Notes: a model not told the origin generated them from the letters alone. A stretch of DNA of 64,000 bases from Candidatus Enterousia sp. (GCA_045593065.1 JAZNVZ010000002.1:71183-135182), one strand, 5' to 3'; positions 1,888 to 62,885 are shown, counted from the first letter of the stretch. Numbers and translations are program-made.

Positions 1888-2712
1888 ATGTTAAAACCAA
1901 TCGTTTGTGCGGCATCTATGATGCTGATTTGTGGCACATCATTTGCGGCATTGCCAACCGTGAAATTAAATAATCAATACAGAAATACGGTGAACAATTC
2001 TGGGGTAGTCAGTGCGCCCGTATCTTATGACAGCCCTGTGATGGTCAGCAAGACCAGTGATATTACCACAGCGATAGGTAAAAATTATGTTGGTAAACCT
2101 TATGTCGGATATAATAATTCAGGCAGCGCAACAACTGCTGATTTGCGTCAAGATATTGCTAATTTGGAAAGCAAAATTACCGATGTTTTGGATGATTTAC
2201 AAAATTTGTCTGACAAGGTAGAGGCGGTTGCAGATGATATTCCCACGATTGGGTTGGTTTTGCCAAACAGAATGGATGATTTAGAAAAACGGCTTGATGG
2301 CGTTAACAAACGCATGGAATTAATAGAACAGCAAGATTTGCCAGGATATATTGACAAGGTTTCTGGCGAATTAAATGCACAAATGCAAAAAATTGCCGAT
2401 ATTGATAGGGTGACAGGCGAAGTAAAAGATGAGTTGGATAAACGTATGTCCAAAGTTGGCACAGAAATCGAAAGTTTGCAAAAACAGACCAAAGATTTAC
2501 AAACGACTTATTTGAATATCAGTGATACATTGCGCGATGATGTGCAGAAAAAAGTAGCGGCAAACGCTGAACATATCAGCGAGTTGAAAAACGGTTTGCA
2601 AAATGCAAATTTGTCGGTTATTGATTTGCAGAATAATGTTAGCGATATAAAAAAGCAAATGGAAAGTATGGAACAAAGAATTATTAGTTTGGAAGAAAAG
2701 ATGCAAAAATAA
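1888..2712 (+). CDS. secreted coiled-coil protein (signal peptide, heptad-rich), function unknown
   Basis: N-terminal hydrophobic signal (MLKPIVCAASMMLICGTSFA); long Q/E/K/L-rich coiled-coil region; good SD. Confidence 0.6.
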   Translation: MLKPIVCAASMMLICGTSFAALPTVKLNNQYRNTVNNSGVVSAPVSYDSPVMVSKTSDITTAIGKNYVGKPYVGYNNSGSATTADLRQDIANLESKITDVLDDLQNLSDKVEAVADDIPTIGLVLPNRMDDLEKRLDGVNKRMELIEQQDLPGYIDKVSGELNAQMQKIADIDRVTGEVKDELDKRMSKVGTEIESLQKQTKDLQTTYLNISDTLRDDVQKKVAANAEHISELKNGLQNANLSVIDLQNNVSDIKKQMESMEQRIISLEEKMQK

Positions 2713-2772
2713 TAATTCATAAAATATTAAAAAAAAATGGGCAAGCGCCCATTTTTTTGATACAATAAATCC

Positions 2773-3852
2773 GTGATAAAATTTTTTAGATTATTTTTTG
2801 TGTGTATATTTGCAGCAATTACATTGCCTGCGGTGGCGAATACAGAACTGGCCAAGATTCAATCGCAAATTCGCCAAACTGAACAGCAAAATAAAAAATT
2901 ACAAGAACAGGTTAAAAAATCTGATAAAAATGTGGCGCAAACCAAGCAGGATTTGGTGCGAACCGCCGACAGAGTCAGTTCTTTGGAAGAACAACGCGGT
3001 AAAATGCAAATCAAAATCGAAGAACTGGATGCACAACGCGAAAAAATTGCGCGTGAATTGGCGGCAAACCAAGGACGGATTTTGGATGCAATATCTGGGA
3101 TGCTGTATATGGCCAATCACCCCAGTTTTGATGTGAATGATATGCACGAATATGTGTTGACATCATCTGTGTTGTCTGGGATGTCGCAACAATTTGATGC
3201 AGAAATTCAAAAGGCATCGCGCCAGTTGGATGAATTGGCCAAAATTATCAATGCACGCAATGTCGAAAAAGAAAAATTGGATAGAACAGCAAAAAAATAT
3301 ACTCTGGAACGCAATGCGTTGGACAAATTATTAAAAACACGCAGTGCACAAAACGAGAAATTAAAAAATCAACAAATTGCGTTACAGAAAAAATTACGCG
3401 CGTTGTCTGAAAAGGCAAAAAGCATTTCTGAATTGTCTGCCGGGGTCGGCAGTTCGCAAATGTCCAGCGATGAACGGTTTTCGCGGCGCAAATTAAATTT
3501 GCCTGTGCGTGGACGCGTTGTTGTGCATTTTGGTGAAAAGACCGCCTTGGGATTAACATCTGACGGTTGGCGGATTAAAACGCGTGGCGATGTTTTGGTA
3601 ACGGCACCTGCGGATGGGGTGGTGAAATTTGCTGATGTTTTCCGTGGATTTGGGCGCGTTGTGATTATATCTCATAAAAATGGTTATAATACTGTGATTA
3701 CGAACATGGGGCGCGTGGATGTTGTCCCAGAACAAGAAGTTTTGGCAGGCGAGCCAATCGGTCGTATCAGTGCAGATAAATCAGAAACATATATAGAGGT
3801 TCGCCGTGGCAACAAGGCGGTTAATCCTGCGCGTTTGTTCAAAGAAGAATAA
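2773..3852 (+). CDS. EnvC-like murein hydrolase activator (coiled-coil plus degenerate LytM/M23 domain)
   Basis: Signal peptide, long coiled coil, C-terminal M23-like domain lacking the HxxxD and HxH metal ligands (WRIKTRG / TYIEVRRG in their place), as in EnvC; GTG start at 2773. Confidence 0.7.
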   Translation: MIKFFRLFFVCIFAAITLPAVANTELAKIQSQIRQTEQQNKKLQEQVKKSDKNVAQTKQDLVRTADRVSSLEEQRGKMQIKIEELDAQREKIARELAANQGRILDAISGMLYMANHPSFDVNDMHEYVLTSSVLSGMSQQFDAEIQKASRQLDELAKIINARNVEKEKLDRTAKKYTLERNALDKLLKTRSAQNEKLKNQQIALQKKLRALSEKAKSISELSAGVGSSQMSSDERFSRRKLNLPVRGRVVVHFGEKTALGLTSDGWRIKTRGDVLVTAPADGVVKFADVFRGFGRVVIISHKNGYNTVITNMGRVDVVPEQEVLAGEPIGRISADKSETYIEVRRGNKAVNPARLFKEE

Positions 3853-3855
3853 TTT

Positions 3856-4560
3856 TTATTTGGTGCGTTTATTCAGCGCTTTGATTATATCGTGTTGTGT
3901 TTTTAACATACTGTCGCACATGTATGTTGTGTATGCTTTGTTGTCGCCTTGTAATCGCGCGCGCAGCATGTCAACATATTGTTGTGTGTCGTGTTTTTTG
4001 TTAAATAATATTGGGGTATAATTATTTTGCAATAAATACCAATTCATAACAATACGCCCAGTGCGTTTATTAAAATCACAGAATGGTTGTATGGCAATAA
4101 TATTGTAATGAATGTCAAATGCCTTGGTCAAAATGTTGTTTTTGTCAGTATTCATTTTGTAAATGGCAGTATTCAATAAATCAATAACTTTTGTTGGGTC
4201 TGGTGCTGGGGCGCCCAAATTATATGCCATGCAATATCTAAAAGTACCGCCAGAAATACCGCAGTTATTATTTTGCGCGATTATTGAATTTATATGACAT
4301 ACATCAGCCATAGTAATAGGGTGTTTTGTTTTTAATCGTTGCAAAACATAATCCCAGGCATTTGCCATATTGCGTATGTTTGTAAAGTCCGTAATCCCTG
4401 TGTTATTTGGTTGCAACCTTTGTGCTTCGTTACCAAATTCACTGTATGCATAACTTTGTAAATTCCAACGCAGGAAACCATCGCCATGTGTCAATGGTTT
4501 TATCTGGGTTTCATTGATTTGTTTAATAAGATTTTTTTTATCTTTCATATTTGATATCAT
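3856..4560 (-). CDS. Fic/Doc family protein with non-canonical motif (QPFCDFNKRTGR)
   Basis: Fic core motif HPFx[DE]GNGRxxR is recognisable as IQPFCDFNKRTGRIV; catalytic His replaced by Gln and a Doc-like NKR in place of GNGR; start taken at ATG 4560 (MISNMKDKK). Confidence 0.65.
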   Translation of the reverse strand: MISNMKDKKNLIKQINETQIKPLTHGDGFLRWNLQSYAYSEFGNEAQRLQPNNTGITDFTNIRNMANAWDYVLQRLKTKHPITMADVCHINSIIAQNNNCGISGGTFRYCMAYNLGAPAPDPTKVIDLLNTAIYKMNTDKNNILTKAFDIHYNIIAIQPFCDFNKRTGRIVMNWYLLQNNYTPILFNKKHDTQQYVDMLRARLQGDNKAYTTYMCDSMLKTQHDIIKALNKRTK

Positions 4561-4692
4561 AATACACAAAACTGTTTTGTCAATAAAATTAAATTTGTGT
4601 ATTAAAAATACGAATTTTCGTGTTGCAGTAAATCTTTTTTTTTAATATGCTGTGTTCATAGTGGGCACGAGGAAGAGAAAGGATTCCAAATT

Positions 4693-6144
4693 ATGTTAAA
4701 AAAAATCTGTGTATGTTTGGCTTTGTTAACATTTTCTGTGGATTGTTTTGCCGCGAATAAATCAACACAGCAAGAACCTGTGGAACATTTGACCGATGCG
4801 CAAATCTATCAAGAATTACAAAAATTGGCGTTGGTTTTTGAAACGGCGCGCGATAATTTTGTCGAAGAAGCAGACGAAAAGAAAATGTTAGAGGCCGCAA
4901 TGAACGGCATGTTGGCGGAATTAGACCCACATTCTTCGTATTTGAATACCGATGATTTCAAAGATTTTAATGATAAATCCCATGGCGAATTTGGCGGTTT
5001 GGGGATTCAAATCACGTCTGACCGTGGGGCGATTCGTGTTATTTCGCCGATTGATGATACCCCCGCGGCCAAGGCAGGAATCAAGGCCGGTGATTACATT
5101 ACCCGCATTGATGATGAACAAGTGTTTGATATGACATTGAATCAGGCCGTTAAAAAAATGAAAGGGCGCCCCGGCACCAAGGTTAAATTAACTATTGTAA
5201 ACGAAGACCACGAAACCAAAACATTGGTGTTGAAACGCGATATTATCAAGGTAAAATCTGTCAAATTCCGCGAAGTGCAACTGGCGGATGGCGATGAAGA
5301 TACACCACGGGTTGGGTATATTCGTATTTCTGATTTTGGGGCAACAACTGTCAAAGAATTAAATGATGCAATCAAAAAATTAGAAAAGGCCAAGGTCGTT
5401 GGCTATGTCTTGGATGTGCGTAATAACCCAGGCGGGTATTTGACTGCGGCGATTGGTGTGTCGGATGCGTTTTTGGACGATGGCGAAATTGTGTCCACGC
5501 GTGGCAAAGAAAAAACAGATGTTGACCGCAGTTTTGCAAAACCTGGGGATTTAACGAATGGCAAACCGATTGTTGTGTTGATAAACCATGGTTCTGCATC
5601 GGCATCCGAAATTGTTGCAGGCGCGTTGCAAGATAATGGTCGTGCGTTGGTGATGGGGTCGCAAAGTTTCGGCAAGGGCAGTGTGCAACAACAAAAACCG
5701 TTGGGTGATGGGACCGCTATTCATATCACTATTGCGCGTTATTATACCCCCAGTGGACGTTCCATTCAAAACGAGGGTATTACCCCTGATGTCCCTGTTT
5801 TGCAATCGCGTGTCAAGGTGTTGGAAAAACGCGATAGCGAATATTCCGAGGCATCATTCAAAAATTCTTTGAAAAATGAAGATGCAAAAAAGACCAAGAA
5901 ATCTAAAAAAGATTCCAAGGTTAGGGATGATGATGACGATGATGAAGATATTGATGATAAAGATTTGACCGATGAAGAAAAAGATGCGCGTGATTATCAA
6001 CTGCAACGCGGCGTTAGTATGGTTATTGCAATGACAAAAATGCAAATGACCGTGGATGACAGACGCGCCGTTGTTGATGCAGAAAACGCCGAAAAAGAAA
6101 AGGCCAAAGAAAAAGCCAAGGCCAAAGCAGAGAAAGAAAAATAG
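4693..6144 (+). CDS. ctpA: carboxy-terminal processing protease (S41 family, PDZ domain) with highly charged C-terminal tail
   Basis: Signal peptide; PDZ segment (GIKAGDYITRIDD); S41 catalytic region (HGSASASEIVAGALQD, KGSVQ); C-terminal 100 aa low-complexity acidic/lysine stretch (DDDDDDEDIDD...KEKAKEKAKAKAEKEK). Confidence 0.85.
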   Translation: MLKKICVCLALLTFSVDCFAANKSTQQEPVEHLTDAQIYQELQKLALVFETARDNFVEEADEKKMLEAAMNGMLAELDPHSSYLNTDDFKDFNDKSHGEFGGLGIQITSDRGAIRVISPIDDTPAAKAGIKAGDYITRIDDEQVFDMTLNQAVKKMKGRPGTKVKLTIVNEDHETKTLVLKRDIIKVKSVKFREVQLADGDEDTPRVGYIRISDFGATTVKELNDAIKKLEKAKVVGYVLDVRNNPGGYLTAAIGVSDAFLDDGEIVSTRGKEKTDVDRSFAKPGDLTNGKPIVVLINHGSASASEIVAGALQDNGRALVMGSQSFGKGSVQQQKPLGDGTAIHITIARYYTPSGRSIQNEGITPDVPVLQSRVKVLEKRDSEYSEASFKNSLKNEDAKKTKKSKKDSKVRDDDDDDEDIDDKDLTDEEKDARDYQLQRGVSMVIAMTKMQMTVDDRRAVVDAENAEKEKAKEKAKAKAEKEK

Positions 6145-6162
6145 TAAAAATATCATAAAATA

Positions 6163-6197
6163 ACAGGGACAAAAATTTGTCCCTGTTGTTTTTTTGT
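6163..6197. terminator. bidirectional rho-independent terminator between convergent ctpA and 6212 gene
   Basis: Hairpin cagggac-aaaaattt-gtccctg flanked by A-run and T-run. Confidence 0.6.
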
Positions 6198-6211
6198 TGG
6201 TTATTTATGTT

Positions 6212-7606
6212 TTATGGGTTGGTATATTCTTCGCCGCTGTCGTCATATACAGAATACACGGTGCCACCAACATTAATTTTCAGGTATTGGTCGACATTAT
6301 CACTCATTTTAATATTTGCAGTAGACATGTTGGCATAATAAATCGTATTACCAATCTGTACATTTAATGTGCGTGTGGTTTGTCTGTTTTGACGCAAATA
6401 AATTGTATTTGTGCCGATATGTAATTCATATCCGCAATCGTTGGCCTCGTCTGCGCCAAAACCGTGCCCAACCGTGGTTAATCCTGTTGGGCATTGTGTG
6501 CGGATGTCGCTGTTGTTTGCGGACCAATATCCCGGTCCCACAGCAACACATACGCCGTTGTTGCGATAATAGCCGCCACCACACATTGTTCCAGAATCTG
6601 GGACCCATGCAGCATAAAATGTTTTGGGGGTTGTGGTATAAATTGGAATTGTTTGGGACATGGCGCAATCCGTCAGTGCGGAATCTGTGCACCATCCGGC
6701 AAATGTATAGTTTTGCTTTGTCGGTGTGCCAGAAATCGTTGTTGCCTCGTCGTCCCAGAATGTTGTTGGTGCGCCTGTGTAATTTGTTCCGCCGTCTAAT
6801 ACATATGTAATTGCGTATTGGGTTGCACATGATACCTTGGAATTCCAGTATGATTCATACCCTGTTATATATTGACGATGATTGGTCCCAGTGCATGATG
6901 TATCCAAACCTGTATTGTAAAATATGCTGGACATCATGGATGTTCCATACGGGTGCCCGTTTTGAATTAGTCCCCCAAATGTGGATGGCGGAATAAATCC
7001 AGACAATGATGAACAATTATAAAAAGCTTGATAAAATGTATAGTTGTATGCATCTGTTATCCCACGGAATAAATTTTCGGGAATAGATGTTATTTTTTTG
7101 CAATTATAAAATGTTCTGTAAAATCGGGGGCGCAAAGCATCCGTGGTGCCCAATATTGGGAACACAGCAGACAAATCGCCACTGATTTCAGTAAAATAAT
7201 CTTTGTTCGTGTTAGACGGTCTAAAAGAAATTGCGGGGGTTGTTGTACCATTGTAATACCCCGTGGCCACACCCCCAATTCGTATCTTGTATTCCCCTGG
7301 TTGAGAATACTGGTGTGTGATTGAATCAAGTGTTGTATTGTTGCGTGGTTTTGTTTCTGCATCACTGTTGTCGCCCCAATCAATATAAAATGTGCCGATG
7401 GCAGAGATGGAGAATGATACAGAGGTGTTTTTTTTGGACGTTTCGGCAGTAATGGTGAATTTTACATCCACACAGGAATTGTCCGGCAGGGTGATTTGGT
7501 CGGTGGTACATGCGTTTGCGGTATTTATTGCACCAAATAACAGCGCCACGGCATACCCCGTACGCATTGCAAATAATTGAAGATTTGATATTGTCAAATT
7601 ACGCAT
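6212..7606 (-). CDS. secreted cysteine-containing repeat protein, paralog of the N-terminal region of the 1116-aa protein at 29456-32806 (BspA-like LRR-type FxxCxxL repeats)
   Basis: Signal peptide (MRTGYAVALLFGAINTANA-C); N-terminal 150 aa alignable with the 29456-32806 product (FTITAETSKK...GTFYIDWGDNS vs FTVTTTNMAAN...GTFYVDWGEGT); repeated FYNCxxLxxIP motifs. Confidence 0.6.
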   Translation of the reverse strand: MRNLTISNLQLFAMRTGYAVALLFGAINTANACTTDQITLPDNSCVDVKFTITAETSKKNTSVSFSISAIGTFYIDWGDNSDAETKPRNNTTLDSITHQYSQPGEYKIRIGGVATGYYNGTTTPAISFRPSNTNKDYFTEISGDLSAVFPILGTTDALRPRFYRTFYNCKKITSIPENLFRGITDAYNYTFYQAFYNCSSLSGFIPPSTFGGLIQNGHPYGTSMMSSIFYNTGLDTSCTGTNHRQYITGYESYWNSKVSCATQYAITYVLDGGTNYTGAPTTFWDDEATTISGTPTKQNYTFAGWCTDSALTDCAMSQTIPIYTTTPKTFYAAWVPDSGTMCGGGYYRNNGVCVAVGPGYWSANNSDIRTQCPTGLTTVGHGFGADEANDCGYELHIGTNTIYLRQNRQTTRTLNVQIGNTIYYANMSTANIKMSDNVDQYLKINVGGTVYSVYDDSGEEYTNP

Positions 7607-7699
7607 CAATATAAAACCATCCCCCCACGTTTGTTGCGCTAAATCCTGATACCAGAATTGTAAGAAGTTCTGGCATTAAAAGCAAGGAGTAAAAATAAA

Positions 7700-7726
7700 A
7701 TCGGCACAAGGCCGATTTGATTTTTA
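7700..7726 (-). terminator. terminator downstream of tRNA-Ser(GCT)
   Basis: Hairpin tcggc-acaag-gccga with a flanking T-run on the minus strand. Confidence 0.5.
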
Positions 7727-7816
7727 TGGCGGAGCGTGTAGGATTTGAACCTACGGACCGCGTTACCACGGTCACGGATTAGCAATCCGCTGCATTTACC
7801 CCTCTGCCAACGCTCC
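7727..7816 (-). tRNA. tRNA-Ser (anticodon GCT)
   Basis: Reverse complement folds as a cloverleaf: acceptor GGAGCGT/ACGCTCC, anticodon loop TTGCTAA, long variable arm, encoded CCA end. Confidence 0.85.
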
Positions 7817-7862: not shown

Positions 7863-9656
7863 TTATTTTGTTTTTGTGCTGGATTTAAATTGCATGTCAT
7901 ACAGCGTTTTGTATGCACCGTTTTCATTTTGTAATAACTCTTCATGGGTACCTGATTCAACAATTACACCTTCGTTAATAACCAAGATTTTGTCCGCATT
8001 GCGAATTGTTGATAATCTGTGCGCAATCACAAATACGGTTTTGTCGCGCATCAGGTTTTCTATCGCTTTTTGAACCACGGCCTCGGCCTTGTTGTCCAGG
8101 GCAGATGTTGCCTCGTCTAACACCAAAATAGGGGCGTTTTTCAAAAATGCACGCGCAATCGCCACGCGTTGTTTTTGCCCGCCAGACAGCAATACACCGC
8201 GTTCCCCAATTTGTGCGTCCAGACCGCCAGGAATCGTTTTTAACACATCGTCCAAACATGCCATTTTTACCGCTTGGTCTAATTCTTCGTTGGTTGCATT
8301 TTCGTTGCCCAGCATAATGTTTTCGCGAATCGTGCCCGCAAACAAGAAATTATCTTGGAATACAACACCGATATTTGCGCGCAACGATTTTAATGTAATG
8401 TCGCGAATGTCCACACCATCAATGGTAATCGCCCCAGATGTTACATCGTAAAAGCGCGGTAATAAACTGACCACTGTGGATTTGCCACCGCCAGAATTGC
8501 CAACGAATGCGATGGTTTCGCCACGTTTAACACGGAAATTGACATTTTTTAATACAGGAACCCCTTGATTATATTCAAATGAAACATTTTTATATTCGAT
8601 TTCATGGATGTCTGGGTTCATGTTTTGGGCGTTTTTGTGGTCTTTGATTTTGGGTTCCATATCCAAAATTTCGAACACGCGTTCAATCGCCAAAAACGAC
8701 ATTAACACATTGTTGTATGTTCCGCCAATAGATTTAATCGGTGTGTACAACATGATTAATGCAGTCAAGAAAGACACAAAACTACCCGCTGTGATTGTGC
8801 CATTCAAAATCAAATATGAACCAAACCAAATCGCCAAACCAATACCAATGGATAAAATAACATGCATAACTGGGGTCAACCAACGGGTGCGTTGCAACAT
8901 TTTCATACGCAGTTTAAATACGCCGTGTAATACATTTTCAAATTTGCCTTGTTGGGTGCCGTCTAAATTATATGCGATGATTGTTTTGTTGCCATTATAT
9001 GTTTCGTTGTATGCAGTCAATAACGCAGAATCTGCCAAAATGGTTTTTGCCATAACATCGTTTATCTTTTTGCGAACCAGTGTCATTGGCAACATTGCAA
9101 ATATCATAATTGCAACGCACACCACCGCCAGTTGCCATGAATTATAAAACAGCACAAAAATCAACGATACAGCAGTAAAAAATTTTTGAACAAATGTTTT
9201 TAAATTGTTTAATAGCCCAGCACATGCCATATCTGCATTGTTATTAAACATAAAAATAACATCCCCAGAATTTTTCTTGCTGAAAAAATCTGTTTCAAAC
9301 ATCAGCATTTTTTTATACAAATCTAATTTCAACAGATTTGTGGTTTTTGCGCCAACCCATGTGTTCAAGTATTGCGCAATATAACGAAACACGCCCTGGA
9401 CAACAGTAAAACCGATAATCATTAACGGAATGTACCATGCGGTTTGCAGGTTTTTATCCACCATAACCACATCCATATACGGTTTTAATGACATGGCGAT
9501 AACCGCGTCCAACGACCCAACAGGAATTGCCACCAATATAGACAACAATCCACGGAACCAATATGGTTTCATATATGGCCACATGCGTTTGTAATTTTGT
9601 ACAAACATGTTGCGTAAAACTCTTTCGCGAATTTCTTTGCTCAGTTTTTTCCCCAT
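7863..9656 (-). CDS. msbA: ABC transporter permease/ATPase, MsbA-like lipid exporter
   Basis: Six-TM N-terminal domain plus C-terminal ABC ATPase (GNSGGGKST Walker A, LSGGQKQRVAIARA signature, LVLDEATSALD Walker B); 597 aa. Confidence 0.8.
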   Translation of the reverse strand: MGKKLSKEIRERVLRNMFVQNYKRMWPYMKPYWFRGLLSILVAIPVGSLDAVIAMSLKPYMDVVMVDKNLQTAWYIPLMIIGFTVVQGVFRYIAQYLNTWVGAKTTNLLKLDLYKKMLMFETDFFSKKNSGDVIFMFNNNADMACAGLLNNLKTFVQKFFTAVSLIFVLFYNSWQLAVVCVAIMIFAMLPMTLVRKKINDVMAKTILADSALLTAYNETYNGNKTIIAYNLDGTQQGKFENVLHGVFKLRMKMLQRTRWLTPVMHVILSIGIGLAIWFGSYLILNGTITAGSFVSFLTALIMLYTPIKSIGGTYNNVLMSFLAIERVFEILDMEPKIKDHKNAQNMNPDIHEIEYKNVSFEYNQGVPVLKNVNFRVKRGETIAFVGNSGGGKSTVVSLLPRFYDVTSGAITIDGVDIRDITLKSLRANIGVVFQDNFLFAGTIRENIMLGNENATNEELDQAVKMACLDDVLKTIPGGLDAQIGERGVLLSGGQKQRVAIARAFLKNAPILVLDEATSALDNKAEAVVQKAIENLMRDKTVFVIAHRLSTIRNADKILVINEGVIVESGTHEELLQNENGAYKTLYDMQFKSSTKTK

Positions 9657-9675: not shown

Positions 9676-11415
9676 TTATTCTGTTACAGGTTCTGGTTGA
9701 TAAATTTCGACATCGCGTGTCATGGCAATAAATTTTTCTGCGCGGCGCGCGGGCAATTCGTCCACTGGCACATCGCGCAAAGATTCCAATGCACCGACAA
9801 CAGAATTTGCAACTAATTCCATTGTTGTTTGCCAATCATTGTGTGCGCCACCTGTGGGTTCGGCAATAATGCCATCAATCACATTCAGGTTTGCCATGTC
9901 GCGCGCAGTTAATTTCATTGCGCTGGCGGCGGCGGCCTTGAATTTATTGTCGCGCCATAAAATGGATGCGCATGATTCAGGGGCAATCACAGAATAAATT
10001 GCGTTTTCCATCATTAAAACCTTGTCGCCAGTTCCAATCGCAATCGCGCCCCCAGAACCGCCTTGACCCACATTGACCGCAACATACGGTGTTTTGATAG
10101 CCAATCCTGTTGAAATTGCCGCGGCGACTGCCTGGGATTGACCGCGTTCTTCGCTTTCACGGCCAGCAAACGCCCCAGCAGTATCAAATAATGAAATCAC
10201 AGGTAGGTTAAAACGTTCGGCCAAACGCATCATACGGACGGCCTTGCGATAACCGTCAGGATTTGCCATACCAAAACGATGTTTTTGACGGGTTTCAATC
10301 GTACGACCAGATTCTTGGCCGATAATTACAGCCGGAATTCCGCGCCAAAAACCGATGCCACTGGCCATTGCGGGGTCTTCGGCATAACATCTGTCGCCGG
10401 CCAGGTATGTCCAATCGTCCACAATCCCGGCGATATAATCCAAGAAATGCGGTCTGTTTTCATGACGCGCCAACAATACTTTGTCATAAGCATCTGTTTC
10501 GCCCATGCCACGAATTTTTTTATCTTTGTCAAATTTTGGTGTTTGTACCTTGATAACCTTTGGGGTAATGGTTTGATGTGTTAATACGCGTAAAATGCGC
10601 GCAATGTTGTCGTGCAAATCTGCGCGCGCAGACACAATGTCGACCATACCGTGTTCGTATAAATAATCAGCGGTCTGGAAATTGCCAGGTAATTTTTCAC
10701 GAATGTTTTGTTCAATTACACGGCGTCCAGCAAACCCAATACGGGCGCCGGCCTCGGCAATATGGATGTCGCCCAACATGGCAAAAGACGCGGTTACGCC
10801 ACCAAATGTCGGGTCTGTTAAAACAACGATATATGGGATTTTTTTGTCGTGCAATTTGTTGACAGCCACGGTTGTGCGCGCCATTTGCATCAATGATAAA
10901 ATATTTTCTTGCATGCGTGCGCCACCACTGGATGTAACCATGACAAATGGTCGATTTAATTCAGCAGCGTGTTCCATCGCAGCAATAATTCCATCGCCAG
11001 CCACGCGCCCCATAGACCCCATCATGAAAAATCCGTTTAATACACAAATAGTAGAATCAATCCCGCCGATTTTTCCATCAGCCGCCACAACAGCATCCGG
11101 GTCCCCGGTATCTTCGCGGGCGGCGGCCAAGCGGTCTTGGTATGATTCGCGGTCAACGAATTCCAATGGGTCATCTGTGGATACAGGTAAATTTAATTTT
11201 TGCCAATTTGCATCATCGAATAATAAATTAAATCTTTGTTTTGGGGTCATAATAAACACATGACCACAACGCGGACATACATAATGATTATCCTTGTAAT
11301 CGCGATAATATACCAATTTTCCGCAAGATTCGCATTTAATCCACATCAATTTAGGAACGCGATCGTATCTTGTGCGTTCTTGGTTTTTTATGCCCGTTTT
11401 TGATTTGAAAAACAT
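9676..11415 (-). CDS. accDA: acetyl-CoA carboxylase carboxyltransferase, fused beta (AccD) and alpha (AccA) subunits
   Basis: N-terminus has the AccD Zn-ribbon (CESCGK...CPRCGH) and CT-beta domain; C-terminal half aligns to AccA from about residue 70 (RPHFLDYI...GQESGR...LPVISLFDTAGAF...GGSGGAIAIG); one continuous 579-aa ORF. Confidence 0.8.
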   Translation of the reverse strand: MFFKSKTGIKNQERTRYDRVPKLMWIKCESCGKLVYYRDYKDNHYVCPRCGHVFIMTPKQRFNLLFDDANWQKLNLPVSTDDPLEFVDRESYQDRLAAAREDTGDPDAVVAADGKIGGIDSTICVLNGFFMMGSMGRVAGDGIIAAMEHAAELNRPFVMVTSSGGARMQENILSLMQMARTTVAVNKLHDKKIPYIVVLTDPTFGGVTASFAMLGDIHIAEAGARIGFAGRRVIEQNIREKLPGNFQTADYLYEHGMVDIVSARADLHDNIARILRVLTHQTITPKVIKVQTPKFDKDKKIRGMGETDAYDKVLLARHENRPHFLDYIAGIVDDWTYLAGDRCYAEDPAMASGIGFWRGIPAVIIGQESGRTIETRQKHRFGMANPDGYRKAVRMMRLAERFNLPVISLFDTAGAFAGRESEERGQSQAVAAAISTGLAIKTPYVAVNVGQGGSGGAIAIGTGDKVLMMENAIYSVIAPESCASILWRDNKFKAAAASAMKLTARDMANLNVIDGIIAEPTGGAHNDWQTTMELVANSVVGALESLRDVPVDELPARRAEKFIAMTRDVEIYQPEPVTE

Positions 11416-11419
11416 GTGT

Positions 11420-11698
11420 TTATCCGTTCATTTTTTTGGTTAATTCGCGGCTGGGTTTGAACAAAATGGTTGTGTTCGCAGCAATCGCCTGGGGGCGGCC
11501 CGTTGACGGATTATACCCAATTTTAGCCGCACGATTGCGCGGCTGGAAAGTGCCAAAACCGCGAATTTCGATACGGTCGCCATTTGCCACCGCGTCAATC
11601 ATAGATTCGGTAACAGTATCCAACATGGCCGCGGCATCGTTTGTGCGCATGCGTTTAAAACTGACCTGGATACTGCGAATAACGTCAGAACGTTTCAT
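11420..11698 (-). CDS. IHF/HU family DNA-binding protein
   Basis: HU/IHF fold signature (RIEIRGFGTFQPRNRAAKIGYNPSTG...ILFKPS); start taken at ATG MKRSD (track start is a TTG). Confidence 0.8.
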   Translation of the reverse strand: MKRSDVIRSIQVSFKRMRTNDAAAMLDTVTESMIDAVANGDRIEIRGFGTFQPRNRAAKIGYNPSTGRPQAIAANTTILFKPSRELTKKMNG

Positions 11699-11799
11699 AG
11701 TTTGTAATCCTTTTGTTATTACTGACAATTTAGCAAATCAGGCAAATATATCAAGTGTTTTTTATGAAATATGCGGTTTTAGGAATTTAATGAAATGGA

Positions 11800-12455: not shown

Positions 12456-12779
12456 TGTTTATCCTTTTAGCTGGCACTAATATAATACAAAAAAATAGTT
12501 TGTCAAGATATATCGTGCCGAATTCTCCCCTAAAAATTTTGTTTGTTTTGCGTGAGTTTTGCATTCACGCCAGGGTTATTGGGCTGTTGTGTTTATCAAT
12601 TTGCACCATAGCGATTCGATATTTAGGGTTATCGAACCAGTAATCCTGTACTTTCTTAGGTGGTGCGACAGCATAACCATTGTCCTGTTTTGTCGCGCCA
12701 ATCTTGGGCAAAGCCCGAAAGTCGATTTATTGTAGCAAAAAAAATTATTTAATGCAAATGTTTTTTTGTGTGCTGCGAA

Positions 12780-13345
12780 TTTCTTGGCATTCCAATCGTC
12801 ACCCCGCCGCAGGGCGGGGCCCAGTTGGCGCAATGCGCCAACTTGTGTAATAAAGCAAAAAAACACAAGTTTTGCGGAACGCAAAACTGGATACCGCGCG
12901 TCCGCGGTATGACGGGACTGTTTATTCCCCCGCCACAAAATCGTCACCCCGCCGCATAATCGTCATTCCGGCGCATGCCGGAATCCAGTTTGCGGAGCAA
13001 ACTTGCTCACTTATTACACAAGTCCGCCTATGGCGGACTGGATACCGCGCGAAATTCGCCCACGAAAATTTGCAATTTTCGCGGGGCCCGAAACCGCGGT
13101 ATGACGATTCTGTGGCGGAATCATCAAAATTCAAATAACACAAAAAATATTTGTGATTATAATCAAAATATGATACAATACCCAGCGACAGGTAAGGGAG
13201 AAAACCAATGAAACCCGCAGACAACAAGTAGATGACGCAAACGAAGTTTGCGGAATCGTCACGGTTGCCCCGCAGTCACGGCGCCGGGAGCGCAGCGAAC
13301 GCAGGCGGACGAGGGAATCCTACACACACCTGGAAACGAACGGAG
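12780..13345. repeat. GC-rich cluster of short palindromic repeat units (REP/MITE-like) in an otherwise AT-rich intergenic region
   Basis: Recurring units: aatcgtcaccccgccgc (x2), ATTCCGGCGCATGCCGGAAT inverted repeat, tggataccgcgcg...cgcggtatgacg (x2), tttgcggaacgcaaa / tttgcggagcaaac, tgaaacccgcaga (x2); no credible ORF. Confidence 0.6.
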
Positions 13346-13377
13346 AGATAATTATGAACAACCTGAAACCCGCAGAA

Positions 13378-13412
<35 letters not shown>

Positions 13413-13505
13413 TAGATAACATCTATTGGATGACAGATTATTAATATCGACTGGGCGCGGATGCGTTCGGTCGATATTTTTTTACATATAACGAAAGGAG
13501 AAAAC

Positions 13506-13868
13506 ATGAAACGAATTTTAGTTTTTGCGATTGGCGCGCTGTTTTTGCTGGATGGCCATGCGGCGTTGGTTGTGAATAATAATGGTCCGCAAAAGGATTG
13601 GCAAAACAATATAGAATACCAAGAAGCGCAAGAAATCGCGGCATTAGAAAACGATATTCGTTTATTGGATGCAGAAATTGCAAAGTGTCAAAAAAAGAAA
13701 AAAGCATGGACTGCGGCAACCATCGTTGGTGGCGTGGGTGTTTTGGCGACAGGAACTGCGGCGATAGTTCAAGCGTCCAAGAAAAAAGAACAAAAAACAG
13801 AATTGTCGTCCAAGCAAACAGAACTGAAACAGGCGCAGACAGAGTTAAACAGGTTAAAAAAGGATTAA
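13506..13868 (+). CDS. secreted/membrane coiled-coil protein, first of a tandem paralog pair
   Basis: AAGGAG SD then ATG; signal peptide (MKRILVFAIGALFLLDGHA), coiled coil, Gly-rich TM segment (AATIVGGVGVLATGTAAIVQ), then charged tail. Confidence 0.55.
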   Translation: MKRILVFAIGALFLLDGHAALVVNNNGPQKDWQNNIEYQEAQEIAALENDIRLLDAEIAKCQKKKKAWTAATIVGGVGVLATGTAAIVQASKKKEQKTELSSKQTELKQAQTELNRLKKD

Positions 13869-22391: not shown

Positions 22392-23657
22392 ATGAAAAAT
22401 ATCATTGCTTTGTGTGGTTTGTTGGGATTTGTATTATGTGCGCATGATGCGCTGGGGGTTGGTGTTGTTGGCGGTGTATCTAATTCTGGGGATGCCAACA
22501 CCAGTCGGGGCAGTTCGTTAATCACCAGTCCAAATACGGGTTCAAATGGTGTGCGTGGCAACCAGGCAATCGCATCTGCGTATAAACAGGCACAATTACG
22601 GAATTTTTATATCACAACCCAGGTTGATGTGGAAAGTGCATGTACAGAAAAATTTATGAAATGTTTGACTGAATTTTGTGGCGGGACGGTTGTAACTGCT
22701 GGGGTGGTGCAAAATCGTTGTCAATATGTTGATCAAAATGATTTGTACAACTATGCATTACTATGTGTGCAGAGTGATACAACCAGATTATTGCCACAAT
22801 ACGATGTTAATTCCGCACGCAGCAGCGGACCGATGAATACGGCGGCCCAGTTATGCCCACCATACGCATCATCCAGTGTGATGACTTATTTGTCCATGGC
22901 CAATATGGCAGACCAATTATCCAAGGCCAGTTCGAATTTATGTATCCAAAGACGTCAAGAATTACAGGCCGCAATGTCTTGTCATTCTGCGGCATTGACA
23001 TACGGGAACGAAACCACCAGTAAATTGGTTTCTCATTTGACAGATTATTGTGGTTCTGGGGTGCCAGGTGGGTCCGCAGAAATGGTGTCGCGGTTTGCAA
23101 ATGCCGGGAACATAGGCGCAAATGTTTGGGGATGGGCGGAAAAAATCGTATCTTTGGATGTTAATTCCAAGGGTGCAGATTGGCAGGCCGCGATGGATAA
23201 TGTTTTGGTTGGATATACGAATCGCATGAATTTGGCGTGTGGTGATAATTTACAGGTAAATACAGGAACACAAACTGTATCTACGACTGGGACAACGGCA
23301 TTGTTAACAGCGGCGGCATTGGTGGGAAATACTGTTGGAAATTCTGGAAATGCTGGCGCACAATATAACAATCCAAATGCGTATCAATCATTGTGGATGG
23401 ATGTTCTGTCAAATTATAATATATTGGATTCAAATACCGCAACCCAGGTTGTTAACGCGGCATTGGTGAATACTGCATTGACATCAAATCCATTTTTAAC
23501 CAGTGCCCAAATGACACAAATGCAAGATGCATACAAACGTGGCACCAAGGTTTTCATCATTCGTGATGGTGTTCGTTGCTTTATTGTTCCTGTGCAAACA
23601 TTGACAGACAGTGAAACATCTATGGTTGCGACACAGTTTTCTACATGCAGAAAATAA
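22392..23657 (+). CDS. secreted protein (signal peptide, Cys-motif domain, Gly/Thr/Asn-rich), hypothetical
   Basis: Signal peptide MKNIIALCGLLGFVLCAHDALG; CTEKFMKCLTEFCGG motif; no enzymatic motifs. Confidence 0.55.
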   Translation: MKNIIALCGLLGFVLCAHDALGVGVVGGVSNSGDANTSRGSSLITSPNTGSNGVRGNQAIASAYKQAQLRNFYITTQVDVESACTEKFMKCLTEFCGGTVVTAGVVQNRCQYVDQNDLYNYALLCVQSDTTRLLPQYDVNSARSSGPMNTAAQLCPPYASSSVMTYLSMANMADQLSKASSNLCIQRRQELQAAMSCHSAALTYGNETTSKLVSHLTDYCGSGVPGGSAEMVSRFANAGNIGANVWGWAEKIVSLDVNSKGADWQAAMDNVLVGYTNRMNLACGDNLQVNTGTQTVSTTGTTALLTAAALVGNTVGNSGNAGAQYNNPNAYQSLWMDVLSNYNILDSNTATQVVNAALVNTALTSNPFLTSAQMTQMQDAYKRGTKVFIIRDGVRCFIVPVQTLTDSETSMVATQFSTCRK

Positions 23658-25208: not shown

Positions 25209-25368
25209 TCCGCTTTCGGGTTTGCCCACAAAATTTTTCAAATTTTGCGGGGGCCCGTTTTCGCTATAGCGAGATTGCATCCAGCAAGAAATAATATGCG
25301 ATTTTTTGTATTTGTTTTGTGTTTTGAAATGTGATAAAATATTGTTGTATATAGATGGGGGGGGATTT

Positions 25369-26247
25369 ATGAAAAATTATATTGTTATCTGTGTGTTGTG
25401 TGGTTTGATGTTGCCTGCATTTGGTGCAAATCGTTCTATGATTGCGGCGGCGCCAGCCGGCAACGACAGTGTTCGTGCCACCGCCATCAAGAATAATCAA
25501 TTTGTAATAAACAACAAATCAAATGACAATGTTAAATCGTCTGTGCGCAAACAACATGGTGTTGCCGTTTTATCTGCGGTGCCTGTGGATGAAACCCCGG
25601 GTGTCAGTGTGGTTGATGATGACCCACGGCCTGCGGATTCGCGTATATTAGAAAATGCCACGAAACGCGCCGCGTGTGTTGATAATAATGTTGGCGCATC
25701 AAACACATTTGTGTGGGCATCCCGTAACAGCAATACATCCAGTTATTCAACAATGATAGAAGATACAGAAAATCCTGAAAATAATGTTTGTTTTGTCGCG
25801 GTTTCTATGCAGTCCAAGGATTCACGTGTAAATATTTCTGATATCCAACCGCGTTATTTTGCAATGGGTGATGTGGTAAATTGCGGGTCTTGGGTTGACC
25901 AGGGTGTTTTAGAAAAACGCATTCTTGACGGCAAAAAAACGGTTCGTGTGTTGTCTGCGGTTGGCGCGGCGGTTGGTGGTGCGGCATTGGGTGTCGGCGC
26001 GATGGAGGCATTTGGAAACAAACTGTTGGCAAAAAATGATAGTTTGTCGGGATTAGAAGGACAAAGAGCGTTGGATGATGATAATTTGTTGGTTTCCAGG
26101 TTGTTGTCCGTCAAAGGGTCGGATGATTATAACAAAGTATATCAGGCCATAGAAACGCTTGCAGACGGTTGTAAAAGCTCGAACGATGGTGTGTGCGCAA
26201 AACACAACTGGAATCAAATAAAATCTCAGTTGGATAGCAGACAATAA
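25369..26247 (+). CDS. secreted hypothetical protein
   Basis: Signal peptide MKNYIVICVLCGLMLPAFGA; Gly/Ala-rich hydrophobic segment; no motifs. Confidence 0.5.
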   Translation: MKNYIVICVLCGLMLPAFGANRSMIAAAPAGNDSVRATAIKNNQFVINNKSNDNVKSSVRKQHGVAVLSAVPVDETPGVSVVDDDPRPADSRILENATKRAACVDNNVGASNTFVWASRNSNTSSYSTMIEDTENPENNVCFVAVSMQSKDSRVNISDIQPRYFAMGDVVNCGSWVDQGVLEKRILDGKKTVRVLSAVGAAVGGAALGVGAMEAFGNKLLAKNDSLSGLEGQRALDDDNLLVSRLLSVKGSDDYNKVYQAIETLADGCKSSNDGVCAKHNWNQIKSQLDSRQ

Positions 26248-26264
26248 CATACGGAGGAAATGAT

Positions 26265-27014
26265 ATGTCTATCAAAAAATTTATGGTTTTAGCAATTTTA
26301 TTGACACCGTGTGTTGGTATTAATGCCGCAAACGCCGCAAACTTGAAGTTTAATGATAACACGAGTGCGAATACCAAGAACGGGTTTTATTATATTTATG
26401 ACCTTAATGAAAAAAGTAATGTGACCGGTGTGTATGATGAATATGGTGGCAAGCAGACAAAATATAAGAATAGTGGCTTGGTACAAACTTGTAATGGTCA
26501 AAATTTAAGATATTACAACGATTGGGAAAAATATGCGAGTGCGGTTGTTATTGATTATGACTGCACAATTTACTACCACTGCAATAACCAAGAATCAGGG
26601 CAAGGCGACAGCGCATTTTTTAACGGCGCAGATTGCTGGCCGTCTTGTGAAGGTATGACAACCAAGGATAAATCTGGTTCGTCTTCATCATCATCTGGGG
26701 GTGATGCGACTGGTACTAGCACACCATCAGCCAACCAGGAATCACCATTGGTACGCGCGGCGGAGATAGTTGATAATTTTTCAAATGGTTTTGGTAAGGC
26801 CAATCAGTGGGTAAATGCGGATGGTGGTTTTAATACTGCGCGTTTGGTGTCTGATTCTGTTGCGGGTGTGCTGTTGGGTAGTGCAGGCGGCGTTATAACC
26901 GGTGTGGTTGTTAAAAAGAATCAGGTGAAAAAAGGATTCGAAGATATTTCTTGCAGTGTCGGTGGACAGATTTTGGGTAATTATGGTGATGATATTCGTA
27001 TCAGTAATCAATAA
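26265..27014 (+). CDS. secreted hypothetical protein with Ser-rich linker
   Basis: Signal peptide MSIKKFMVLAILLTPCVGINAANA; several Cys; SSSSSGGD linker. Confidence 0.5.
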   Translation: MSIKKFMVLAILLTPCVGINAANAANLKFNDNTSANTKNGFYYIYDLNEKSNVTGVYDEYGGKQTKYKNSGLVQTCNGQNLRYYNDWEKYASAVVIDYDCTIYYHCNNQESGQGDSAFFNGADCWPSCEGMTTKDKSGSSSSSSGGDATGTSTPSANQESPLVRAAEIVDNFSNGFGKANQWVNADGGFNTARLVSDSVAGVLLGSAGGVITGVVVKKNQVKKGFEDISCSVGGQILGNYGDDIRISNQ

Positions 27015-27049
27015 AATATAACAATATAAACACTGTATTTTAATGTTTT

Positions 27050-27084
27050 TGTTCTGCCCCAACCATAGGGCAGAATTTTTTTTA
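27050..27084 (+). terminator. rho-independent terminator
   Basis: ttctgcccc-aaccata-gggcagaa followed by T8. Confidence 0.65.
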
Positions 27085-27196
27085 GCAATTCCGCACAAGT
27101 GGTAGAGCGCACAAACAGGCAGAGTATTAATAATCTTGACAATATATATATTTGTGCTATTTTTGACAAAAAGAACCCAAAAAAAAGGATGCAAAT

Positions 27197-28237
27197 ATGA
27201 AATCCAAAAAAACAATTTTTACTGTTGGCATGGCGACATTATTGTCTGTGGTGACAGCTAATTCTAAAAACCGCACAGAAAACATAGCAACGCCTGAACC
27301 TGTGCGTAATACAGTTGTTGAACCCCGCGATACGGTGGCGGCGGCCAATGATTCTGTGATTTATAATGCGGCAAATGAAAAATCAACCGATGTGTCGGGT
27401 GTAAAACCGCGCATTGTTAAAACCCAGGCAGATGTATTACACAATAAAATTGTACAATCTGCAAAACCCATTATTATTGATGCTTTACAAGATTTAGAGC
27501 GTGTTTTGGCGTCTTATTCGTTGAACATAGATTGGAATGCGCAACGCGCAGAATTGATGAATATTTTGTCGCCATACGGCGAAGATTTAGATACGCCAAA
27601 TCGTGAAAGCGCGCGTTTGTTTGAATATGCGTGGAATCAAAATGAATTCTTGCGCGTATTGTTGCAGAAAAACAAAGTGTTCAGTAAATATGATGAACGC
27701 ACCCAGGCAGAAATTCAACGGTTTGTGATTCGTTGGTATGTTGGGACTATGCGCGAATTAAAACAAAACAGGGTGGCGTTATCTAAACAATTTGCAGAAT
27801 ATTATCCTGTGTTGAATTTGGATGATGTTCCCCAAGATTTACAAAAATTGTTTGCGGATTATGACCCTGCGGTTATGCAAAACGGCAACAAAATTTCGTA
27901 TGGTTATAAAAAATTATCAAATGCGCCTGTGTCTATTGAACGCAAAATAACCGTACGCAGTGGGAATATAAATCCTGCATTCTTTAATGTTGATAGCGCA
28001 AATTATGAATTAATATCTGTGGGAAAATACAGATGGCAAGTGTCCAGAACATTGGGCAATACGGTTGAAACATCGCCGGCGTTTTATTGTGCGGCTGATT
28101 TTGATACAGTATGGACATTTGGCGCACGCGATAATAGTTTTGTTGCCACCGCATATGGCGCAAAACCAGGTGTGCAAATATCTGTGTCTAATGTTTTATA
28201 TCAACGCGCTGCAACAAAAAATGACAAAGTGCGTTAA
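27197..28237 (+). CDS. secreted hypothetical protein (346 aa)
   Basis: Signal peptide MKSKKTIFTVGMATLLSVVTANS; no recognisable catalytic motifs. Confidence 0.5.
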   Translation: MKSKKTIFTVGMATLLSVVTANSKNRTENIATPEPVRNTVVEPRDTVAAANDSVIYNAANEKSTDVSGVKPRIVKTQADVLHNKIVQSAKPIIIDALQDLERVLASYSLNIDWNAQRAELMNILSPYGEDLDTPNRESARLFEYAWNQNEFLRVLLQKNKVFSKYDERTQAEIQRFVIRWYVGTMRELKQNRVALSKQFAEYYPVLNLDDVPQDLQKLFADYDPAVMQNGNKISYGYKKLSNAPVSIERKITVRSGNINPAFFNVDSANYELISVGKYRWQVSRTLGNTVETSPAFYCAADFDTVWTFGARDNSFVATAYGAKPGVQISVSNVLYQRAATKNDKVR

Positions 28238-46204: not shown

Positions 46205-46714
46205 ATGTTTGGTTTTGGTAAAAAGAAAAAAGAAGAAGCAACAAACGCGTCTGCAGACGAAGTGAAAATGCCGTCTGGTATGCGTGAAACTGCGGAACGC
46301 ATGATGTCTGGGCAATTTGACATGAACGATATGTTGGCGCAGTTAAAGCAAATTCGTAAAATGAGCAATTTCAGCGGTCTGTTGAAAATGGTGCCTGGTA
46401 TGTCTGGGGCGGTTAATGCGATGAAAGAAAAAATTAAAGACGGTAGTGTCGATGCTCAAATTAAAATTTTGGAAGCGATGACCGCCGAAGAACGCGCTGA
46501 CCCAGAAAAAGTTTTCGCAAATGCCAAGGCGCGTATTGCAGAAAGCGCGGGTTGTTCGGTTCGTGATGTTGAACACATTATCAAACAGTATTTGAATATG
46601 AAACGCCAAATGGCAATGATTCAACGCATGGGCGGGATGGAGGCCGTTATGCAACGCATGCAACAAAATGGTGGTATGCCAGGCAATATGCCAGGTACCC
46701 CGGGGGCAAAATAA
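46205..46714 (+). CDS. ffh: SRP54/Ffh M-domain-only protein (stand-alone ORF or 3' gene fragment)
   Basis: Aligns to the Ffh M domain from the FDLNDF helix to the Met/Gly-rich C-terminus (FDMNDMLAQLKQIRKM...AKARIAESAGCSVRDVEHIIKQY...GGMPGNMPG); no NG GTPase domain; own AAAGGAG SD. Confidence 0.65.
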   Translation: MFGFGKKKKEEATNASADEVKMPSGMRETAERMMSGQFDMNDMLAQLKQIRKMSNFSGLLKMVPGMSGAVNAMKEKIKDGSVDAQIKILEAMTAEERADPEKVFANAKARIAESAGCSVRDVEHIIKQYLNMKRQMAMIQRMGGMEAVMQRMQQNGGMPGNMPGTPGAK

Positions 46715-51200: not shown

Positions 51201-52124
51201 TTAAATTAAATCCGAATATGGCAAAGACTTGATATATTTTTCCATATAAACCCAGTCAGGTTCACCTTTATTATCGACAGGTAGTTTTATTTGATGCAAC
51301 ACAAAATCTTTTTGACGATATTGTCGTCCATATGCATACCTATACTTATCCATACTTATAACGGATGCTATAAATAATTTTATAAATTTGTTCAATGGCG
51401 TTTTTTCTTTTAACACTAAAATATTATCATCACAAGCAAAATCATATGACCTATAAAAACAATTACAAAACATATCAATCGTTATTGAGTTGTTGTATAT
51501 TTTCATTTCTGGATTTGATATATAATCAGATATACCCTCGTTTGATGCACCAGCCGTTGCCAATGGTATTTTACCAGGAATTCTGTTTTCTTTTGTTAAA
51601 CGCACTCCACGAGCAACACCGAACAAATCGGACAACTTAAAATGTTTCCATTTTGTCGTATCAAATTGTGATTCTTTGCGTTTTATTTTTGTACCAATTG
51701 AGCTGTAATCAATTTTGTATTTTTTTAACCAATCCGGCAATGGCGGCAAATTGATGTTTTTCAACGTTTTGTTCGCCTGACGGCCATAACTATAACGATA
51801 CGCATTCATTTTTATGACATGGCAATAAAACAATTTTTCTTCCAATGACATTTCTTTTTTAGGTATAAGCAAATATAAATCACGTCCACTGTAAAAAGGC
51901 TTATCTTGAACAAAGGTTGATAAAACACTGCCACCGCCAGCACACGTAAGTATTCCTGCCGGTTGTGGTTCTTTCCCAGAAATGCGTTTTACCCTTGCTA
52001 CAACACCATTGTTTTCAGCCGTTCTGGCAACAAAATTTATTGCATCTGCATCATCGGACTGTTCCAGAGCATCAAGTTCTAGATTTATTCCATATTTAAT
52101 ATCAAATAATTCAGATACTAACAT
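51201..52124 (-). CDS. restriction-modification specificity subunit (two tandem target-recognition domains; BcgIB-like)
   Basis: Internal two-fold repeat (SELFDIKYG...YRYSYGRQANK vs LSDLFGVARG...YRYAYGRQYRQ); directly downstream of and co-oriented with the MTase-ENase gene. Confidence 0.65.
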   Translation of the reverse strand: MLVSELFDIKYGINLELDALEQSDDADAINFVARTAENNGVVARVKRISGKEPQPAGILTCAGGGSVLSTFVQDKPFYSGRDLYLLIPKKEMSLEEKLFYCHVIKMNAYRYSYGRQANKTLKNINLPPLPDWLKKYKIDYSSIGTKIKRKESQFDTTKWKHFKLSDLFGVARGVRLTKENRIPGKIPLATAGASNEGISDYISNPEMKIYNNSITIDMFCNCFYRSYDFACDDNILVLKEKTPLNKFIKLFIASVISMDKYRYAYGRQYRQKDFVLHQIKLPVDNKGEPDWVYMEKYIKSLPYSDLI

Positions 52125-52126
52125 TG

Positions 52127-62855: not shown

Positions 62856-62885
62856 AGAAAAAGCCCCCAAATGGGGGCATTTTTA
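62856..62885 (-). terminator. terminator downstream of the RNase J gene
   Basis: gccccca-ttt-gggggc followed by T5CTTT on the minus strand. Confidence 0.55.

Follow-up and report, generated by a model that had tools for sequence, protein, structure and literature searches.

In a stretch of 64,000 nucleotides from Candidatus Enterousia sp. (GCA_045593065.1 JAZNVZ010000002.1:71183-135182; the whole stretch is called the window below), a minus-strand open reading frame (ORF) at 9676..11415, here named accDA, appears to join AccD and AccA, the beta and alpha subunits of the carboxyltransferase (CT) of acetyl-CoA carboxylase (ACC). The locus raises three questions: is this fusion a real gene or a product of assembly, did it arise in its present lineage or arrive ready-made, and what would a single-chain CT do in such a host? 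Candidatus Enterousia belongs to the order Rs-D84 of the Alphaproteobacteria, whose members are uncultured, live in animal guts and have genomes of some 0.75-1.0 Mb (PMC12306168). As we argue here, accDA very probably encodes a single-chain CT component of ACC that was fused within Rs-D84 and that would act as a dimer, together with separate partner subunits.

The accDA reading frame and its domains

Exactly one ORF spans 9676..11415. It runs from an ATG start to the stop codon at 9676-9678 in one frame and without interruption, encodes 579 amino acids, and is supported by profile and Protein Data Bank (PDB) matches as well as by the ORF listing. A preliminary description of this DNA had proposed such a continuous ORF, with the AccD zinc ribbon and CT-beta domain followed by AccA in one chain; Pfam, NCBIfam and PDB comparisons bear out both points, and the junction peptide quoted in that description is present in the translation.

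The AccD part occupies residues 7-282 (10570..11397) and passes the accD equivalog TIGR00515 with 332.4 bits against a cut-off of 317.45, covering profile positions 11-283 of 285. It matches Pfam Carboxyl_trans and the E. coli chain 8uz2_D, and a second Escherichia coli AccD chain (2f9y_B) aligns to residues 13-279. A Cys4 zinc ribbon lies at residues 25-50 (11266..11343; C28, C31, C47 and C50), where Pfam Zn_ribbon_ACC (PF17848) matches with an E-value of 5e-9, and the oxyanion-hole pair G205-G206 aligns with G204-G205 of E. coli AccD. Such an N-terminal ribbon is peculiar to the beta subunit of bacteria and plastids; that of E. coli serves a double purpose, since catalysis depends on it and so does binding of the accA and accD mRNAs (PMC2831308).

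The AccA (CT-alpha) core follows at residues 308-565 (9721..10494), with a G452-G-S-G-G456 loop. Pfam ACCA extends over residues 266-565 (E 1e-104), and the NCBIfam model AccA_sub (NF041504) matches residues 311-565 over profile positions 2-256 of 257, its 326 bits exceeding the cut-off of 300; structures 2f9i_A, 8uxz_A, 9m70_B and 2f9y_A match the same region. With E-values between 1e-60 and 1e-104, a chance resemblance is ruled out. The full-length AccA models PRK05724 (349.5 against 357) and TIGR00513 (299.6 against 319.3) fall just under their cut-offs because the first 33-47 profile positions are unmatched, their matches beginning at positions 33 and 47. Consistently placed alignments were obtained with Staphylococcus aureus AccA, whose residues 65-320 align to 308-563, and with E. 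coli AccA, whose residues 53-310 align to 305-562. The first 55-60 or so residues of full-length AccA, which form its N-terminal helices, are absent from the fused protein. The preliminary description was therefore right that the N-terminal helical region is gone, and needs only a small correction in that AccA begins at about its residue 53-65, not about residue 70.

In place of these helices stands the short Lys-rich linker that the same description had pointed out. It comprises some 29 residues, 279-307 (10495..10581, minus strand), as defined by alignment, substitution rates and structure prediction, and its first residues are still covered by the end of the AccD profile match; its sequence, THQTITPKVIKVQTPKFDKDKKIRGMGETDA, contains 7 Lys in 31 residues. 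The linker carries a clade-specific motif, P-K-x-I-x3-T-P-x5-K-K-x-R-G-x-G-E, with conserved positions P285, K286, I288, T292, P293, K299, K300, R302, G303, G305 and E306, and its length differs by one residue only across 84 sequences. That this conserved motif has assumed a role, whether structural or regulatory (binding of nucleic acids or of a partner, for example), from the lost AccA helices or from the autoregulation of unlinked genes is conceivable but improbable.

The fusion recurs well beyond the window. A 100%-identical protein (P0001) is encoded by nine independently assembled contigs from different samples, and in all 84 sequences examined (the window and 83 related loci) AccD and AccA share one frame in an uninterrupted ORF of 573-612 amino acids, with no stop codon or frameshift at the junction. 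Each of these sequences has a single copy of either half; neither the window nor the 1.17 Mb of related loci yielded a further accA or accD. A scan of one genome per species returned at least 544 stretches encoding a relative; the best 80 are full-length, share 72-91% identity and are nearly all titled gut or rumen Alphaproteobacteria or 'Candidatus Enterousia'. Among the sequences with an intact copy are two metagenome-assembled genome (MAG) chromosomes, each a single long record: OZ007020.1, of 958 kb and marked by its title as circular (metaFlye), and OZ246409.1, of 716 kb and labelled 'chromosome: 1', though its title names Muribaculaceae.

Selection acts along the whole chain. The ratio of nonsynonymous to synonymous substitutions (dN/dS; Nei-Gojobori, window against 11 close relatives) is 0.046 for the AccD part, 0.122 for the linker and 0.046 for the AccA part, values that are rough since dS is near saturation; purifying selection thus extends over the AccD half, the linker and the AccA half alike. 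Across 35 Enterousia sequences no change is seen at C28, C31, C47, C50, G205-G206 or G452-G456, and in a set of 55 fused proteins drawn from many lineages the zinc-ribbon cysteines hardly vary. Given the nine contigs, the 84 one-frame ORFs, the single-record MAG chromosomes and the low dN/dS, an artefact is excluded: the fusion is genuine and conserved and, judging from these comparisons, almost certainly yields a functional single-chain AccD-AccA carboxyltransferase.

Other identities for the protein were considered and rejected. Methylmalonyl-CoA decarboxylase (mmdA, TIGR01117) reaches 70.9 bits against a cut-off of 998.8, and a zinc ribbon is present; malonate decarboxylase reaches 57 bits against 278. 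For PccB/AccD5/MmdA-type proteins in general, profile scores are far under the cut-offs, the zinc ribbon is again present, and structural matches show 17-20% identity. An internal restart yielding a separate AccA was likewise rejected, since relatives have Leu, Ile or Ala at the position of M304, the sole Met of the linker.

Origin and spread of AccD-AccA fusions

How unusual is this architecture? A HMMER search of 1.84 billion cluster representatives at 50% identity was made, and architectures were counted in the best 150. The whole Enterousia clade collapses there to one representative (P0121, 78% identity), and the next match has 44%. The AccD-AccA order is found in 107 of the 150 and the reverse, AccA-AccD, in five (P0194, P0230, P0231, P0236 and P0246), the others being stand-alone AccD (15) or stand-alone AccA (23). 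Fused examples come from Actinomycetota, Chloroflexota and Kiritimatiellia among others, those of the latter two being MAG proteins; cultured actinomycetes with the fusion are Micromonospora arborensis (WP_357309443.1) and Saccharothrix tamanrassetensis (WP_184697008.1), the RefSeq product name of the second being 'carboxyltransferase subunit alpha/beta'.

In Bacillus subtilis and its relatives the two genes lie side by side in an accD-accA operon. The literature uses the joint name accDA for that pair of genes. Marsh et al. (PMC4009401) count the E. coli CT (2F9Y) as a 'prefusion' complex, a term for complexes with subunits that other genomes encode as a fusion. The view that accA and accD are separate and unlinked in most bacteria, with which the preliminary description had set off this locus, thus holds where it is documented, in E. 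coli (PMC2831308), but the counts above show that fusion is not rare. The architecture was already known, and the Enterousia protein adds another case that has probably arisen independently; our literature search found no paper describing this particular fusion. Together with the 107 AccD-AccA and five AccA-AccD representatives, it adds to the evidence for recurrent fusion of this pair. It also exposes a weakness of annotation: MAG records name such proteins 'subunit beta' or 'subunit alpha' only, and surveys may accordingly score the other subunit as missing.

A group of distant fused proteins (P0176, P0198, P0199, P0200, P0223, P0226 and P0235) deserves separate mention. They keep the zinc ribbon and have degenerate catalytic glycine motifs, with for instance GISES, ANSEG or ARGEA replacing GGSGG; to judge from these residues they may be inactive or have acquired a new function.

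Several observations bear on where the Enterousia fusion came from. Compared with the AccD half, the top stand-alone AccD proteins reach 271-279 bits, and no other fused protein exceeds 241 with its own AccD half; the corresponding figures for AccA are 253-256 bits for stand-alone proteins and 246 for fused ones. Identities are 49-52% between the AccD half and its closest stand-alone counterparts, and 46-49% between the AccA half and the closest full-length AccA proteins that stand alone. In neighbour-joining trees (built without bootstrap) both halves sit inside groups of stand-alone proteins. No similarity was seen between the Enterousia linker and those of other fused lineages in a comparison of 55 diverse fused proteins, and the long linkers of other lineages still hold the AccA N-terminal helices, with an 'L-D/E-F-E-x-P' motif.

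Two of the closest stand-alone genes have no partner gene nearby. A stand-alone accA (locus L084) comes just after a gene of the phage-integrase family, with no accD within 6 kb; a stand-alone accD (L085) is followed by a small ORF and then by a folC-type gene with Mur_ligase_M and FOL3_C domains, with no accA within 6 kb. We take these contexts to be the xerD-accA and accD-folC arrangements usual in proteobacteria. Because stand-alone proteins score higher, the trees group both halves with them, the linkers are unrelated and these two stand-alone genes lie away from a partner, an independent fusion is favoured, and neither a shared junction nor monophyly with the fused proteins of other phyla was found, a result of moderate support. 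On these comparisons the Enterousia fusion is probably an independent, lineage-specific event in Rs-D84. Two formerly separate genes of alphaproteobacterial type would have been joined within the lineage after one of them relocated; the dispensable AccA N-terminal helices would have been lost, and a lineage-specific linker would have become fixed.

The best-surviving rival is horizontal transfer, by which the lineage would have received an already fused gene from a different phylum, such as Actinomycetota, Chloroflexota or Kiritimatiellia. The wide occurrence of the AccD-AccA order (107 of the best 150 representatives) speaks for it, as does the existence of many other fused proteins with short linkers (22-36 residues) and no AccA N-terminal helices. 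So does the small margin for the AccA half (253-256 against 246 bits): an independent origin rests on modest score differences, especially in this half, and on trees without bootstrap. We nevertheless consider a transfer unlikely, since other fused proteins reach at most 44% identity, whereas stand-alone AccD reaches 49-52% and stand-alone AccA 46-49%, since both halves group with stand-alone proteins in the trees, and since the linker resembles that of no other fused lineage.

Predicted structure and metabolic role

A first AlphaFold2 run, based on 35 close relatives only, gave a mean predicted local distance difference test (pLDDT) score of 61.5, and its fold matches were discarded. A second run with the 55 diverse fused proteins gave a pLDDT of 90.3 and a predicted template modelling score (pTM) of 0.89. 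In this model the linker is a coil with pLDDT 78-94. The AccA half superimposes on Chloroflexus CT-alpha 9m70_B (template modelling score, TM, 0.96) and on E. coli AccA 2f9y_A with a root-mean-square deviation (rmsd) of 0.8 Å, and the AccD half, with its crotonase-type fold, on E. coli AccD 8uz2_D with 1.5 Å over 257 columns. The whole modelled chain aligns with single-chain carboxyltransferases over 510-550 columns (TMq 0.64-0.67; 1on9_E, 1vrg_A and 2bzr), the 12S transcarboxylase 1on9_E giving a TMq of 0.67 and an rmsd of 4.0 Å. From this whole-chain alignment the two halves of a chain are predicted to lie against each other in the manner of the N and C domains in those enzymes. In this enzyme family the beta subunit is the counterpart of the N domain and alpha that of the C domain (Bilder et al. 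2006, as cited in PMC4009401 and PMC2831308).

A plausible working scheme follows the order of the chain, from CT-beta (AccD with its zinc ribbon) through the linker of about 29 residues to the CT-alpha (AccA) core. The halves would pack against each other in one chain and two chains would dimerise, so that the protein, by analogy with the two-subunit enzyme, most likely works as a homodimer equivalent to alpha2beta2. By homology, the fused dimer would transfer CO2 from carboxybiotinyl biotin carboxyl carrier protein (BCCP) to acetyl-CoA. Fusion would fix the subunit ratio at 1:1 and turn the first assembly step into an intramolecular one. In E. coli, accA and accD are unlinked and subject to translational autoregulation through the zinc ribbon (PMC2831308); fusion removes the need for equal expression of two unlinked genes.

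Loss of the AccA N-terminal region is not special to the fusion, because separate short AccA subunits exist (NCBIfam AccA_sub, 9m70_B) and because an ACC rebuilt with a Chloroflexus CT-alpha construct, residues 1-253, was reported active (PMC11077971). These helices are dispensable elsewhere.

Two points on the metabolic side weigh against an ordinary role in ACC. Rs-D84 genomes were reported in a survey to be without lipid biosynthesis pathways, in addition to the tricarboxylic acid cycle, respiration and parts of glycolysis (PMC12306168). Furthermore, neither the 64-kb window nor the surroundings of accDA in the 83 loci showed a gene for biotin carboxylase, BCCP, biotin ligase or acyl carrier protein (ACP), or any fab gene. 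This search used tblastn with sequences of E. coli AccB, AccC, ACP, FabZ, FabG and BirA, and its negatives cover the window and the 83 related loci (1.17 Mb) only, saying nothing on the remaining genome; Pfam scans of about 40 window ORFs and of 10 ORFs of a related locus (L078) showed housekeeping genes and no ACC partner or type II fatty-acid synthesis (FAS II) gene. In E. coli the genes for the ACC partners lie elsewhere on the chromosome (PMC2831308), and the simplest expectation is that accB and accC of Enterousia do so as well. That the enzyme is essential is suggested by catalytic residues that never vary and by a dN/dS near 0.05.

It is improbable, and less credible than horizontal transfer, that the fused carboxyltransferase has been kept without fatty-acid synthesis and supplies malonyl-CoA to, or acts in, a process other than FAS II, or, in a milder form, that the linker took over a role. 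Still further down stands an orphan or repurposed carboxyltransferase, engaged in a reaction of the decarboxylase or transcarboxylase type or in RNA-binding regulation via its zinc ribbon and not in making malonyl-CoA for lipids. The reported lack of lipid biosynthesis pathways in Rs-D84 (PMC12306168), the absence of ACC partner or fab genes near accDA in any locus examined and the binding of mRNA by the zinc ribbon of the E. coli CT (PMC2831308) would all agree with such a protein. It is made very improbable by the invariance of all catalytic and zinc-binding residues at a dN/dS of about 0.05, and by profile scores that pass the ACC-specific accD equivalog while remaining far below mmdA (71 against 999 bits) and malonate decarboxylase (57 against 278 bits). 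Calls of 'missing' pathways in MAG surveys, moreover, are often artefacts of completeness. The ACC partner genes of E. coli, too, are distant on the chromosome (PMC2831308). Weakest of all, and scarcely conceivable, is an indel error that merged an adjacent accD and short accA in this assembly: the sole a priori reason for it is that MAG assemblies can carry indels, no actual support was found, and it would have to account for an identical ORF on nine contigs from different samples, for 84 in-frame sequences out of 84 that include MAG chromosomes assembled as single long records, for a linker length constant to within one residue and for purifying selection spanning the junction.

A CT component of ACC, made as one chain, is thus the reading we retain. 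It raises a checkable question, namely whether Rs-D84 bacteria really lack lipid synthesis; if the partners were truly absent, accDA would encode an orphan carboxyltransferase and be far more interesting.

Genomic surroundings and known carboxyltransferases

Upstream of accDA, at a distance of 4 nt, lies a gene for an HU-type DNA-binding protein (11420..11728, minus strand; Pfam Bac_DNA_binding). The same gene directly precedes accDA in every one of the 83 related loci, mostly at a distance of 4-27 nt, and the two are probably co-transcribed. Their pairing is strikingly conserved, with no known functional link, and the downstream neighbour varies by lineage. In the window that neighbour is an MsbA-like ABC exporter gene (7863..9656, minus strand; Pfam ABC_membrane and ABC_tran) starting 19 nt further on; it adjoins accDA in 15 loci, all of close relatives, and is absent or elsewhere in 53. 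Our scan found no terminator-like site between the HU gene, accDA and the exporter gene, the first one on the minus strand being at 7718-7698, after a tRNA-Ser gene. Promoter-like matches were no commoner than in shuffled sequence.

The region 2500-7800 was compared with a related locus (L081) that encodes an identical accDA protein. Several indels were seen, with an offset of about 600 bp around an M23 peptidase gene, and the tRNA-Ser of the window (7727-7816) corresponds to the site of a called 44-aa ORF in L081. Four proteins from the window edges were tried and no identical sequence was on record. Judging from these indels and the lack of identical edge proteins, the strain or assembly behind the window is not the one behind L081.

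Elsewhere in the window lie housekeeping genes, along with many ORFs that could be assigned to no family. Directly after uvrA (43330-46167), a 169-aa ORF on the plus strand (46205-46714) matches only the M domain of SRP54/Ffh (Pfam SRP_SPB, 37-136), and there is no upstream space for the NG GTPase domain; from its sequence it appears to be an Ffh M domain made as a protein by itself, or else what is left of a split ffh gene. An RNase J-like ORF (62883-63935, minus strand) has the beta-CASP and C-terminal domains only, the metallo-beta-lactamase N domain not being in the ORF; the window ends 65 nt beyond, so that a split gene, a frameshift and a truncation are indistinguishable. Genes for the HsdS (Methylase_S) and HsdM (N6_Mtase) subunits of a type I restriction-modification system lie at 51201-53989 (minus strand), in the patch with the lowest guanine-plus-cytosine (GC) content of the window (0.34) and with a GC skew opposite in sign to most of it; this patch is probably an acquired island.

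The intergenic region 12760-13400 contains short imperfect direct and inverted repeats, for instance AATCGTCACCCCGCCGCA in three copies and the arms CCGCGGTATGACG; copies of a CACACAC-containing repeat occur at 13315-13329 and 13375-13389, and a minus-strand ORF at 13352-13609 reads 'CVCVCVCVC', indicating a CA/TG dinucleotide run. ORFs without a Pfam match (E <= 1e-5, or 1e-6 for most) were found at 29456-32806 (minus strand), 22392-23657, 25306-28237 and 56198-57586. Among these large ORFs, one encodes 1116 amino acids and three follow one after another; they fit the 'hypothetical membrane-bound proteins' reported for the lineage.

How does the Enterousia protein compare with carboxyltransferases already described? 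Both of its halves are homologous to the CT of the E. coli and S. aureus ACC (AccA2-AccD2; 2F9Y, 2F9I and 8UZ2), with 42-46% identity, and it shares with them the Cys4 zinc ribbon, the GG pair of the beta part and the GGSGG loop of the alpha part; it differs in being one polypeptide instead of two, with a 29-residue linker where the AccA N-terminal helices stood. The CT of Chloroflexus aurantiacus (9M70) has a similarly short CT-alpha, residue 12 of 9m70_B aligning with residue 309 of the fused protein, and this chain is the best structural match of the AccA half; its CT-beta and CT-alpha are separate polypeptides, unlike those of Enterousia. With the fused proteins of other phyla, the Enterousia protein has in common the order of zinc ribbon, CT-beta, linker and CT-alpha and a length of 550-650 amino acids, and many of them likewise have no AccA N-terminal helices, but overall identity is at most 44% and their linkers, of 22-104 residues, are unrelated in sequence. 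Finally, like the single-chain carboxyltransferases (1ON3/1ON9, PccB, AccD5/AccD6 and the beta subunit of propionyl-CoA carboxylase, PCC), it combines N and C domains in one chain. Those acyl-CoA carboxyltransferases are hexamers that use different substrates; they have no zinc ribbon and show 17-20% identity to the Enterousia protein.

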